Source of the DNA: an uncultured Candidatus Rokubacteria bacterium | Lineage (GTDB): Bacteria > Methylomirabilota > Methylomirabilia > Rokubacteriales > CSP1-6 | Direction of reading: 5' to 3' | NCBI GenBank assembly: GCA_963789955.1 | Contig: CAWBMV010000022.1 | Coordinates: 480,001-544,000 of the forward strand | Length of the DNA stretch: 64,000 nucleotides | Shown here: positions 43,991 through 48,395 of the stretch, in pieces | How positions within the stretch are numbered: the stretch's first letter is position 1 | How the letters are laid out: each line of letters starts with the position of its first letter | Made by a program: the position numbers and the translations under genes | Notes under the pieces: model-generated | Databases searched by the model: none | What the model saw: the letters and a program-made list of their open reading frames with translations, nothing else | Told to the model about the DNA's origin: nothing

Positions 43991-44875
43991 ATGTCCGTCG
44001 TCACTCGCCAGATCGGTCCATGCTTCGCCGCGGAAATGGAAGGCATCGACATGACCCGGCCGCTGACCCCGGACGAGGTCAAGGCGATCCACGCCGGCAT
44101 GGACAGATATGCCGTGCTGGTCTTCCATGACCAGCAGATCGACGACGAGCAGCAGCTGGCCTTCACGCGGAGCCTCGGCGAGATCGAGCTCGCCGTCGGG
44201 ACGAGCCTCCGGGCGGCGAACGAATACCGTCTGCCGACGACCTTCGCCGACGTGTCGAACCTCGACCAGAATCACCAGGTGTTCGCCCGCGACGACCGGC
44301 GGCGTCTGTTCGCGATCGGCAATCGCCTCTGGCATTCCGACAGCTCGTTCAAGGTCATCCCGGCGAAGTACTCGCTCCTGCACGCCCGGGCGATTCCGTC
44401 GAAGGGCGGCAACACCGAGTTCGCCTATATGCCCGGGGCCTACGACACGCTCGACGCCGACACCAAGGCCCAGGTCGAAGACCTGATCTGCGAGCACTCG
44501 CAGATCTTCTCGCGCCAGCAGCTCGGCTTCACCGACTTCACCGACGAGGAGCGCGCGCGCTTCAAGCCGGTGCTCCAGCGTCTCGTGCGCGTGCATCCCG
44601 GCACCGGGCGGAAGTCGCTCTACCTGTCCTCGCACGCGGGGTCGATCGTCGGCTGGCCCGTGCCCGAGGCGCGCTTCTTCCTGCGCGATCTGGTCGAGCA
44701 CGCGACCCAGCGCGAGCTCGTGTACTCGCACACGTGGCGGGTCGGCGACCTCGTGATGTGGGACAACCGCCAGACGATGCACCGCGCGCGTCCGTTCCCG
44801 GCGCACGAGCCGCGCGACATGCGCCGTACCACGCTCAAGGGCGACGGGCCGACGGTCGCTCAGGCCGCCGCCTGA
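43991..44875 (+). CDS. TauD/TfdA family 2-oxoglutarate-dependent dioxygenase (TfdA-like)
   Basis: WHSDSSF (HxD), GGNTEFA and WDNRQTMHR motifs. Confidence 0.92.
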   Translation: MSVVTRQIGPCFAAEMEGIDMTRPLTPDEVKAIHAGMDRYAVLVFHDQQIDDEQQLAFTRSLGEIELAVGTSLRAANEYRLPTTFADVSNLDQNHQVFARDDRRRLFAIGNRLWHSDSSFKVIPAKYSLLHARAIPSKGGNTEFAYMPGAYDTLDADTKAQVEDLICEHSQIFSRQQLGFTDFTDEERARFKPVLQRLVRVHPGTGRKSLYLSSHAGSIVGWPVPEARFFLRDLVEHATQRELVYSHTWRVGDLVMWDNRQTMHRARPFPAHEPRDMRRTTLKGDGPTVAQAAA

Positions 44876-44911
44876 GGAGCCCAGAGACTCCGACGAGGGG
44901 GGGTGATTCGG

Positions 44912-44971
44912 ATGGCGAAAGGCACGGGCATGCGGAAGGAGACGAAGAAGCCGAAGAAGAAGAAAAAGTAG
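44912..44971 (+). CDS. 19-aa Lys-rich peptide (uORF) MAKGTGMRKETKKPKKKKK
   Basis: SD-like GAGGGGGGGTGA just upstream. Stop ends 6 nt before the ABC-F ATG. Confidence 0.6.
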   Translation: MAKGTGMRKETKKPKKKKK

Positions 44972-44977
44972 CGTCGG

Positions 44978-46771
44978 ATGGCCCGACCGCTCCTGCTCAG
45001 CTGTGAGGCGGTGAGTAAGGCCTATGGCACGCGCAGCCTCTTCGAGCGCCTGACCTTCGGACTGTTCGAGGGCGACCAGGCCGGTCTCGTCGGCCCGAAC
45101 GGCTCCGGCAAGTCCACCTTGCTCAAGATCCTGGCCGGCATCGAGCCGGCCGATCGCGGCTCTCGTTCACTGCGCGGGGGTGTGCGGGTCGGCTACGTTC
45201 CCCAGGACCCGGTCTTTCCGACCGGTCACACCGTCGACGCCGTCGTGCTCGCCGCGCTGACCGGCGTCGACGAGGAGGATCGGCCCGGGCGACTCGCCCA
45301 CGCGCTGAGTCGCTCCGGCTTCGCCGACGGGCGCGCGGCCGTCGACACCTTGTCGGGCGGCTGGCGCAAGCGGCTGGCCATCGCGCGCGAGCTCGCGGCG
45401 GCGCCCGACATCCTCCTGATGGACGAGCCCACCAACCACCTCGACGTGGAAGGGATCCTCTGGCTCGAAGACTTGCTGACCGAGCGTTCTCGAGCGTTCC
45501 TGGTGGTGAGCCACGATCGCTATTTCCTGGAGCACGTCGCCACGCGCATGCTCGAGCTGAACCGCGCCTATCCGGACGGTCTGTTCCAAACCGACGGGAG
45601 CTACAGCGAGTTCCTGGCGCGCCGCGACGAATTTCTACGCGGGCAGGCGGCGTACCAGGATGCGCTCGCCAACACGGTGCGCCGCGAGATCGAGTGGCTC
45701 CGTCAGGGTGCCAAGGCGCGCTCCACGAAGGCCAAGGGCCGCATCAAGCAGGCCGGGCGCCTGATCGAGGAGCTCGAGGACGCCCGCGCGCGCGGGCTGA
45801 CGGCCACCGCGGGAATCGACTTCACGTCGTCGCAGCGCCGCACGCGCCGGCTGCTCGTCGTGCGTGGGCTCACGGTGTCGCGCGGCGGCCGGACGCTCGT
45901 CAGCGGCCTCGACCTCGTCGTCACGCCCGGCACGCGGGTCGGGTTGATCGGGCCCAACGGCAGCGGCAAGACCACGCTCCTCGAGGTGCTCGCCGGGGTC
46001 GCGCCGCCGGACGCGGGTGAGATCGAGCGGGCGGACGGTCTGCGGATCGTCCGCTTCGAGCAGCAGCGCGCGGCGCTCGATCCGGCGCAGAGCCTTCGCC
46101 GCGCGCTCGCTCCCGAGGGCGACACCGTCACGTGGCAGGGACGCAGCGTGCACGTCGCCGCGTGGGCCAAGCGCTTCCTGTTCCGGCCCGAGCAGCTCGA
46201 GGTGCCCGTCGAGCATCTGTCGGGCGGCGAGCAGGCGCGCATCCTGATCGCCCGGCTCATGCGCGAGCCGGCGGACCTCTTGATCCTCGACGAGCCGACC
46301 AACGATCTCGACATCCCGACGCTCGAGGTGCTCGAGGACAGCCTCGCGGAATTCGACGGAGCCCTCGTTCTGGTCACGCACGATCGCTTCATGCTCGAGC
46401 GCGTGTCGACGGTGATCGTCGCGCTCGACGGTCGGGGCGGGACCGCGACATTCGCCGACTACGCGCAGTGGGAATCGGCCCAGACCACGGTCGAGCCGGC
46501 TCAGCGCAAGGCGCCGGACCGTGCCGCCGAGGCGTCGCGGCAGCGGCCGAAGCGTCTGGGCTATCGCGAGCAGCGCGAGTGGGAGGGCATGGAGCAGGCG
46601 ATTCTCGACGCCGAGCGCGCCGTCGAGGCATGCCAGGGAGCCGTCGACGATCCGGCGATCGTCTCGGACCCGACCGCGCTGCAGCAGCGCTACGCGGCGC
46701 TCGAGGCCGCGCGGGCCGACGTCGATCGACTCTACGCGCGCTGGGCCGAGCTGGAGGCCAAGCAGGCCTAG
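44978..46771 (+). CDS. uup: ABC-F family ATPase (Uup-like)
   Basis: Two ABC domains (GPNGSGKST/T, LSGG, DEPTN), no TM segments, linker EIEWLRQGAKARSTKAKGR, C-terminal coiled coil ending LYARWAELE. Confidence 0.9.
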   Translation: MARPLLLSCEAVSKAYGTRSLFERLTFGLFEGDQAGLVGPNGSGKSTLLKILAGIEPADRGSRSLRGGVRVGYVPQDPVFPTGHTVDAVVLAALTGVDEEDRPGRLAHALSRSGFADGRAAVDTLSGGWRKRLAIARELAAAPDILLMDEPTNHLDVEGILWLEDLLTERSRAFLVVSHDRYFLEHVATRMLELNRAYPDGLFQTDGSYSEFLARRDEFLRGQAAYQDALANTVRREIEWLRQGAKARSTKAKGRIKQAGRLIEELEDARARGLTATAGIDFTSSQRRTRRLLVVRGLTVSRGGRTLVSGLDLVVTPGTRVGLIGPNGSGKTTLLEVLAGVAPPDAGEIERADGLRIVRFEQQRAALDPAQSLRRALAPEGDTVTWQGRSVHVAAWAKRFLFRPEQLEVPVEHLSGGEQARILIARLMREPADLLILDEPTNDLDIPTLEVLEDSLAEFDGALVLVTHDRFMLERVSTVIVALDGRGGTATFADYAQWESAQTTVEPAQRKAPDRAAEASRQRPKRLGYREQREWEGMEQAILDAERAVEACQGAVDDPAIVSDPTALQQRYAALEAARADVDRLYARWAELEAKQA

Positions 46772-46781
46772 CTCGGCGCCG

Positions 46782-48395
46782 TCACGCGACGCCTTCCTCC
46801 GCCACGCGCGCGGCGGTGGGCTCGCTCGCCGGCGCGGTGGCCGCCGTCGAGGGCGCCATCCGGATGCGCCGCATCAGCGGCAGGACCAGGGGCACCGCCG
46901 CGAACATCATCGCCAGGAGCCAGAAGTCGTCGGCGTAGGCCAGGAGCTGCGCCTGCGCCACCGTCTCGCGGTAGAGCATCGTGACGGCCTGGCGCTCGGC
47001 GGTGAAGACGTCGCTGCCGCGGGCCACGAAGTGGCTCGCCCACTGCGCCAGGCGATCGCGCGTCGCCGGATCCCACACGGTGATGTGGCTCGCGAGCGTG
47101 GTCTGGTGGATCTGGCTCCGCTGGGCGAGCAGGGTCGTGACCACCGCGATGCCGACGCTGCCGCCGATGTTGCGCGACATGCCGTAGACCGCGGTCGCGT
47201 TCACGAGCTTGTCGCGCCGGATCGTGGCCAGGGTCAACGTCGACAGCGGCACGAACACGAACCCGAGCGCGAAGCCCTGGATGAATCGCGGCAGCGCCAG
47301 CGCCCAGTAGTCCATCCCGAGCGTCAGCGAGGTCATCATGTAGAAGCTGACCGCGTTGAGCAGGCAGCCGAAGGCGAGCATGAGGCGCTGGTCGACGCGG
47401 GTCACGATGCCCGAGGCGAAGAGCGAGAAGATGTTGCCGAGACCGCCGGGGGCCAGCACGAGGCCGGACGTCCACGCGTCGTAGCCCAGGAGCTTCTGCG
47501 TGAAGATCGCGATCAGCAGCATGCCCGAAAAGCTCCCGAAGCCGACGACCATGCTCAGCGCGGCGCCGGTCGCGAAGTTGCGGTCGGCGAACACGGTGAG
47601 GTCGAGGATCGGTTCACGGGTGGTCAGCTCGCGGATCAGGAAGCCGGCGAGCGCGCACACGGCGACGATGCTCAGCGCGACGATCGCGCGCGAGTCGAAC
47701 CAGTCCTCGCGCTCACCGCGGTCGAGCACGAGCTGCAGACAGCCGAAGCCGGCGACCATGAGGCCGAGGCCCCACCAGTCGATCCGCGTGGCGCGACGCA
47801 GGTACGGCGGATCGAACAGGAAGACGCTCGCCAGGAAGAAGCCGACGACGCCGACGGGCAGGTTGATGTAGAAGATCCAGCGCCACGACCACTGGTCGGC
47901 CAGGTAGCCGCCGACGGTCGGGCCCAGGATCGGGCCGAAGATGAAGCCCAGGCCCCAGACCGCCATCGCGAGCCCGCGCTGATGAAACGGGAAGATCTCC
48001 CAGAGGATCGCCTGCGAGAGCGGAATGATCGGCCCGCCGCCGAGGCCCTGGAAGATCCGCGCCACGATCAAGGTCGTCAGGTCGGGGGCGGCGCCCGAGA
48101 TGAACGAGCTGACGACGAACAGGGTCGCGCAGATCAGAAAAAACCGGCGGCGCCCGAACAGGCCGGCCAGCCAGCCGGTGGCCGGGATGATCACGGCGTT
48201 GGCGGCGAGGTAGGACGTGATCACCCACGAGACCTCGTCCAGGCCCGCGGACAGCGATCCCTGGAGATGCGGCAGGATCACGTTGGTCACGCTGGTGTCG
48301 AGAATCTGCATGAACGCCACCACCATGACGGTGATGGTGATGGCCCACTTCCGCGGGGCGGAGATCACGGGCGCTTCCGGTGCCGGGGACGTCAT
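46782..48395 (-). CDS. DHA2 family MFS efflux permease (EmrB/QacA)
   Basis: MQILDTSVTNV, GPILGPTVGG, WRWIFYINLPVG and RNIGGSVG motifs. Confidence 0.92.
   Translation of the reverse strand: MTSPAPEAPVISAPRKWAITITVMVVAFMQILDTSVTNVILPHLQGSLSAGLDEVSWVITSYLAANAVIIPATGWLAGLFGRRRFFLICATLFVVSSFISGAAPDLTTLIVARIFQGLGGGPIIPLSQAILWEIFPFHQRGLAMAVWGLGFIFGPILGPTVGGYLADQWSWRWIFYINLPVGVVGFFLASVFLFDPPYLRRATRIDWWGLGLMVAGFGCLQLVLDRGEREDWFDSRAIVALSIVAVCALAGFLIRELTTREPILDLTVFADRNFATGAALSMVVGFGSFSGMLLIAIFTQKLLGYDAWTSGLVLAPGGLGNIFSLFASGIVTRVDQRLMLAFGCLLNAVSFYMMTSLTLGMDYWALALPRFIQGFALGFVFVPLSTLTLATIRRDKLVNATAVYGMSRNIGGSVGIAVVTTLLAQRSQIHQTTLASHITVWDPATRDRLAQWASHFVARGSDVFTAERQAVTMLYRETVAQAQLLAYADDFWLLAMMFAAVPLVLPLMRRIRMAPSTAATAPASEPTAARVAEEGVA

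Follow-up and report, generated by a model that had tools for sequence, protein, structure and literature searches.

The locus studied here raises the question whether a lysine-rich micro-ORF that ends directly before the gene of an ABC-F ATPase is a leader peptide of that gene or a gene in its own right. It lies in a window of 64,000 nucleotides from an uncultured Candidatus Rokubacteria bacterium (contig CAWBMV010000022.1, positions 480,001 to 544,000 of the forward strand), and all coordinates below refer to this window. A first-pass annotation had proposed that the tract KKPKKKKK is a built-in stall reporter that couples ABC-F expression to the activity of the ABC-F itself, and had named a free-standing small basic protein as the alternative. 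The explanation favored here, to which a probability of about 0.55 is assigned, is that the micro-ORF encodes a stand-alone micro-protein that would bind RNA or the ribosome, and that its translation would feed the ABC-F by termination and re-initiation.

The micro-gene (44912..44971, + strand) consists of 19 codons, about half of them for lysine, followed by a stop, and its translation is MAKGTGMRKETKKPKKKKK, a 19 aa member of a family with the pattern MAKG-x4-5-[KR]E-x-KKPK. An extended Shine-Dalgarno (SD) sequence, GAGGGGGGGTGAT, is located at 44895..44907 (+), pairs with the 16S tail and is conserved in relatives. Six nucleotides, CGTCGG (44972..44977, +), separate the stop of the micro-gene from the start of the ABC-F gene and likely form a re-initiation window. 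The ABC-F gene itself (44978..46771, +) encodes an arm-less ATPase of 597 aa from the Uup/EttA clade with the C-terminal extension PF16326, and has almost no SD of its own. Translation and 16S pairing therefore bear out the initial observation of an ORF with a strong SD that stops 6 nt before an SD-poor ABC-F gene. A 5-bp hairpin at 44973-44987 carries the ABC-F ATG in its loop; it is terminator-like on the minus strand and is not conserved in relatives. The upstream neighbor, encoding a TauD/TfdA-family dioxygenase (43991..44875, +), ends 36 nt before the micro-ORF in this genome, and this interval contains no -10 box. It is found here and in some relatives and does not belong invariably to the unit, which is closed by a convergent gene for a DHA2-family MFS transporter (46782..48395, -) that is no member of it. 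The same three-gene order is present in a Candidatus Methylomirabilota record, in which the ABC-F is 85% identical.

The micro-ORF is not a chance ORF, but a real and selected gene. Base shuffling produced a similar lysine run ahead of a stop in 1 of 100 windows. The ABC-F was identified at E ≤ 1e-100 in 33 of 61 related genomes, of which 30 loci were taken, and the DNA upstream of the orthologous genes, which the first-pass annotation had proposed to inspect, contained the peptide at 19/29 loci (own locus included) and lacked it at 10/29. These 19 copies were thus reached via the ABC-F, without any peptide pattern. Within them the micro-ORF is 87% identical compared with 31% for the flank, and codons 2-13 of the 17 distinct copies gave a pN/pS of 0.22. 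The SD is conserved as well, as GG(A/G)GGTGA was found in 44 of 45 aligned relatives and GGCGA in the remaining one. When the phylum was searched with the peptide pattern, 95 of 251 genomes contained it, with one copy each, and a reversed control pattern matched none of the 251.

The family extends far beyond this phylum. A GTDB scan with MAKG-x-E-x-KKPK gave an estimate of ∼5,500 stretches, based on 2 of 64 parts, from which 120 matches were sampled. Small ORFs starting at the motif accounted for 118 of these, and the other two were off-frame inside longer ORFs. Complete members (117) had a length of 17-52 aa and an SD of at least 5 nt preceded 94 of the 118 ORFs; since the search pattern fixes the motif, conservation inside it arises by construction, but this does not apply to the small size of the ORFs, to their start exactly at the motif or to the SD. 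Record titles placed the members in Alpha-, Beta- and Gammaproteobacteria, Patescibacteria, Acidobacteriota, Verrucomicrobiota, Planctomycetota and Methylomirabilota, that is, in six or more phyla, and a copy from Nomurabacteria equals the peptide of this locus at 16 of the first 19 residues. Four consecutive lysines were present in just 3/117 members, which indicates that the conserved feature is the motif and not a poly-lysine tract. The median net charge of the members is +10.

At E ≤ 0.001, a profile built from 96 members retrieved 2,178 cluster representatives. It identified the family in 13/201 genomes of one Patescibacteria class and in 56/201 genomes of the order of a Bradyrhizobium genome, and almost every carrier had a single copy. 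Family members were also found on plasmids and in 26 viral stretches, where all ORFs were 18-43 aa long and five were on contigs >200 kb. A tblastn search of INPHARED phages gave no match, which carries little weight as the query was short and of low complexity. No meaningful match to the family was obtained in Pfam, NCBIfam, PHROGs or PDB, the ESM Atlas matches were 'hypothetical protein' clusters only, a 44-aa member had no homologs other than unnamed or 'hypothetical' ones among the 120 matches listed, and no description of the family was found in the open-access full-text literature. A separate family, with micro-ORFs of the MAKKKATKKKK type, occurs in 30/61 relatives with 0 control matches. 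Three further free-standing lysine micro-ORFs, 10-12 aa long and each with a perfect AGGAGGTGA site, were observed at G000:C6:252638(-) and at G000:C34:854673(+) and 854768(+) (loci L177 and L176), the latter two being arranged in tandem at a distance of 95 nt.

The surroundings of the family members were varied (146 scanned neighbors), and no ribosomal-protein operon was among them. The gene downstream of the member was on the opposite strand in 28/73 cases and on the same strand within 20 nt in 5/73. At 79 flanked loci, an ABC-F followed the member directly in one case, the Methylomirabilota record, and an EttA was located 383 nt away in another; outside the Methylomirabilota lineage, none of the flanked loci had the member directly before an ABC-F. 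In 41 further loci there was a single distant ABC match, upstream of the peptide. Homologs of the peptide are thus located mostly away from ABC-F genes, the very arrangement that the first-pass annotation had named as speaking against its stall reporter. Among promoter patterns in 138 family loci, a sigma-70-like pattern was enriched (14 vs 3.6 in shuffled sequences), and EcfG, sigma-54 and RpoH promoters were not. In betaproteobacteria, the member is divergent from a stand-alone RF-1-domain gene at two loci (L054, L105) and lies beside a RIO1 kinase gene at two others (L102, L127).

One distant member, SM2011_a6027 (47 aa) of Sinorhizobium meliloti, is translated and its protein was detected. 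Ribo-seq RPKM values of 3,967 and 6,588 and a TE of 5.4 are given for it in Supplementary Table 2 of PMC10117765, and it was identified by MS in the same study. It shares the N-terminal motif with the peptide of this locus, but has a longer Ala/Pro/Ser-rich tail and is encoded on pSymA, where it is annotated as a hypothetical protein. No ABC-F was among the upstream neighbors seen; the gene is located 0.8-2.5 kb downstream of a groES-groEL pair.

Inside the phylum, the peptide and the ABC-F are connected, yet separable. The link drawn by the first-pass annotation holds within this lineage, as 64 of the 95 copies are located directly before an ABC-F. Thirty copies are not (28 without the two from genomes marked as unpublished, G025 and G139) and one is at a contig end. 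Behind the intact peptide gene, G148 and G150 retain 18 nt that match the beginning of the ABC-F gene exactly but lack its ATG, and G141 retains an 18-codon internal ABC-F remnant (78%, E 5e-8). No ABC-F orthologue was detected in G148, G141 and G248 (98, 97, and 93% complete, respectively) or in G150 (79% complete); in G215 and G029 it is located on another contig. These remnants and missing orthologues beside intact peptide genes show that the peptide gene outlives the ABC-F; a leader would be confined to the regulated gene and lost with it, which is not what is seen for the peptide. At the ABC-F gene of G029 (L028), where the peptide is absent, TATACT is located 7 nt before the ATG, suggesting a leaderless transcript. 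It is concluded that the micro-gene is a member of a widespread, undescribed family that is independent of the ABC-F. This agrees with the free-standing small basic protein that had been offered as the alternative.

The reading as a stall reporter also depends on the type of the ABC-F. The protein contains PF00005 twice, the PF12848 linker and the C-terminal extension PF16326, which corresponds to the architecture of Uup. Among NCBIfam models, Uup (NF050005) ranked first with 415 bits, far below its curated cut-off of 900, followed by EttA with 380; two further ABC-F models, presumably those of YheS and YbiT (PRK15064, 243 bits), scored ∼245 bits. In a tree of 21 rows, including the four E. 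coli K-12 paralogues, the protein joined Uup and EttA (100/98) and was separate from YbiT/YheS, although long branches lower the certainty; Uup, EttA and the protein formed a three-way open fork. It shares 32% identical residues with E. coli Uup and 33% with EttA. Compared with the others, its first domain has 30-40 residues fewer, which indicates that the arm is missing, and arm loss has been reported for several Uup lineages (PMC6723617). Judged from its sequence, the protein is an arm-less member of the Uup/EttA clade and not of the YbiT type. It resembles Uup/YfmR in its best NCBIfam match, clade, C-terminal extension and arm loss, and differs in that low score and low identity. The genome also encodes a true EttA and a YbiT/YheS-like paralogue, and no lysine-rich micro-ORF was found at the start of either gene.

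A possible coupling between both genes was assessed by the pairing energies of their SDs with the 16S tail of the genome itself, using 1,213 long ORFs as background. With -19.4 kcal/mol, the SD of the micro-ORF exceeded the best start of all 1,213 background ORFs (1st percentile -14.2). The ABC-F SD of -2.4 kcal/mol was weaker than 92% of the background, a comparison in which it appears somewhat weaker than is fair, because for each background ORF the best of several candidate starts was counted. Among the ABC-F loci, the median ABC-F SD was -2.8 with the peptide (n = 19) vs -5.8 without it (n = 9). The gap between peptide and ABC-F is 6 nt in 51 of the 64 adjacent copies and -4 to 9 nt in the others, which include a GTGA stop/start overlap. 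A stop close to a weak-SD start, as expected of a coupled pair, is thus found here. Small ORFs of S. meliloti that are well initiated, end at or near a main start and are predicted to raise its translation have been described (PMC13285730). The micro-gene is similar in its strong initiation and its end near the main start; however, the validated cases overlap the main ORF, whereas here the gap is mostly 6 nt and a conserved protein is encoded.

Ribosomes would load at the very strong SD of the micro-gene, make the peptide, terminate at its stop and re-initiate 6 nt downstream at the SD-poor ABC-F start, so that ABC-F output would follow translation of the peptide without a sensing step. This supposes that the micro-gene and the ABC-F gene are co-transcribed and that this copy is translated. 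A stand-alone protein with translational coupling to the ABC-F is, on these grounds, considered probable. Coupling is not required everywhere, since three peptide-bearing relatives offer the ABC-F a usable SD (-9.3 to -9.7). TANNAT was present 29-78 nt upstream in 62/94 phylum loci vs 0 in control windows and is absent from this locus. RNA-library contigs from four studies span the micro-ORF and its neighbors, but as such contigs cannot show transcript, strand or level they were given no weight.

The two ORFs are in frame here and in 53 of the 64 adjacent copies overall, which would permit read-through of the stop codon into an ABC-F with a poly-lysine N-terminal extension. The ORFs are, however, out of frame in 11/64 copies, and the stops are 53 TAG, 6 TGA and 5 TAA, with a double stop in one copy. 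On the basis of the out-of-frame gaps and the varied stop codons, a read-through fusion was rejected, its probability being close to nil. Gaps ranging from the GTGA overlap to 9 nt, together with the out-of-frame copies, fit re-initiation and exclude a required fusion.

As a sensor, the tract KKPKKKKK would stall ribosomes when the ABC-F is short and thereby raise its expression. In 64 of 95 genomes the peptide gene immediately precedes the ABC-F gene, mostly with a 6-nt gap, which is consistent with this, and terminal K/R runs of at least four were present in 26/64 ABC-F-adjacent copies vs 1/30 of the others, although these relatives are not independent. Stalls at poly-lysine are also real and are relieved by an ABC-F (PMC11162784; PMC11381351). 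In these studies, however, poly-basic stalls, observed with reporters of 20 lysines, were assigned to YbiT/YkpA, and proline motifs to Uup/YfmR. The ABC-F of this locus falls with Uup/EttA, and it is the YbiT/YheS-like paralogue of the genome that has no lysine-rich micro-ORF at its start. Moreover, the terminal run is just two in 30/64 adjacent copies, the mean number of K+R is 10.3 in adjacent copies vs 10.1 in the others, and lysine codons are 192 AAG vs 26 AAA. Poly-A slippage was rejected, since the longest A run is at most 5 in 22/23 copies. Given the size of a ribosome footprint, stalling at the end of the micro-ORF would place the ribosome over the start of the ABC-F gene and lower its output, which is the wrong sign for a compensating sensor.

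Leader regulation of an ABC-F is known from vmlR of B. subtilis, an antibiotic-resistance ABC-F gene with a leader uORF (PMC9226507). Here too a short ORF on the same strand precedes an ABC-F, but it is separated from the start by just 6 nt, without a terminator/antiterminator or SD-sequestering structure; the peptide is conserved across phyla and persists without an ABC-F, and the ABC-F is of the housekeeping type. Indeed, the fold z-score was +1.14 at this locus, the median over 64 loci was +0.8 with 0/64 below -2, and the consensus fold of the alignment (-2.25 kcal/mol) had no structure over the ABC-F start. An attenuator or SD-sequestering structure was rejected on these results, and no alternative RNA structures that a stalled ribosome could switch were found at this locus. 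With an independent peptide, an ABC-F of the wrong clade and no RNA switch, the stall reporter was not upheld, and a sensor of this kind is considered highly improbable.

The lowering sign of the 6-nt geometry would suit a different dual use, in which the stand-alone gene has been co-opted as a rheostat and lysine-tail codons that are decoded slowly, as upon lysine shortage, reduce re-initiation at the ABC-F. The longer K runs of adjacent copies and the lysine content of about half of the codons agree with this, but the excess of K runs is concentrated in a few related genera and total lysine content is equal in copies without the ABC-F. Such a use is regarded as improbable, although less so than the sensor.

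The stand-alone peptide is likely disordered and positively charged. Its job may be to bind RNA or the ribosome, with slightly less than even odds, and the conserved N-terminal motif would then make the contact. The charge of ∼+10, the fixed N-terminal motif, the mostly single copy and the presumed co-expression with a translation factor at this locus hint weakly in this direction, as do nearby cold-shock genes and a phage member located among tRNA genes, and related loci are not independent of one another. A cold-shock-domain gene was located within 1.5 kb in 7/105 proteobacteria-rich loci and 0/9 Patescibacteria loci, and this genome has two such genes; the seven loci are L067, L076, L116, L358, L366, L368, and L379, and in six of them the gene is at most 450 nt upstream. 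In a viral contig of 217 kb (L216:2453-2548), an array of 10 tRNAs and one tmRNA surrounds the family member, which is on the opposite strand. At L204 and L205 the member converges on tRNA-Tyr.

The same charge, and the patchy, mobile distribution on plasmids and phages, would also be expected of a general polyanion binder without a special ribosome link, be it a DNA-condensing (nucleoid), polyphosphate-binding or anti-aggregation chaperone protein. Terminase and capsid genes among the phage neighbors and the S. meliloti copy near groES-groEL fit this as well. On the other hand, the N-terminal motif, fixed with set spacing across phyla, would suggest one specific site rather than bulk charge, there is usually one copy per genome, and no match of the peptide to the SERF-like model PF04419 was obtained. 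A general polyanion binder is therefore considered rather unlikely. Eukaryotic SERF/ZNF706 proteins are small, charged and bind nucleic acids, and the first residues of the peptide are presumed to resemble them. PF04419, however, gave no match to the peptide at E ≤ 10 in 5 carrier genomes, in which the peptide was perhaps unscored, and none in 85 members; an identity as SERF was rejected for lack of a match to this model.

For binding to the ribosome, the nearest comparison is with bS22, bL37, bTHX, and bL38, which are very small, strongly basic, missed by annotation and lineage-restricted, with strong SDs. The family is alike in its length of 17-52 aa, basic character, strong SD and absence from annotation. 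It differs in being patchy within orders and classes, without a ribosomal-protein operon among the scanned neighbors, and no Pfam or NCBIfam model or PDB chain of such small basic ribosomal proteins was matched. The patchy presence (13/201, 56/201, and 95/251 genomes) speaks against a core ribosomal protein. A narrower proposal is that the MAKG...KKPK protein is an accessory ribosome-binding factor that would be co-expressed with the arm-less Uup in this lineage because both act at one ribosomal site, possibly replacing its missing charged arm. This is doubtful; if it holds true, a factor among the smallest known would occur in at least six phyla as well as in large phages.

Thousands of genomes and some phages thus carry a conserved micro-protein without a family model. 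Its function is testable at once, since SM2011_a6027 is strongly translated in the tractable model S. meliloti. For studies of ABC-F proteins, the locus urges caution, as a lysine-rich ORF before a housekeeping ABC-F gene need not be a sensor. If binding to the ribosome holds true, the family would represent a mobile, accessory layer added to bacterial translation.
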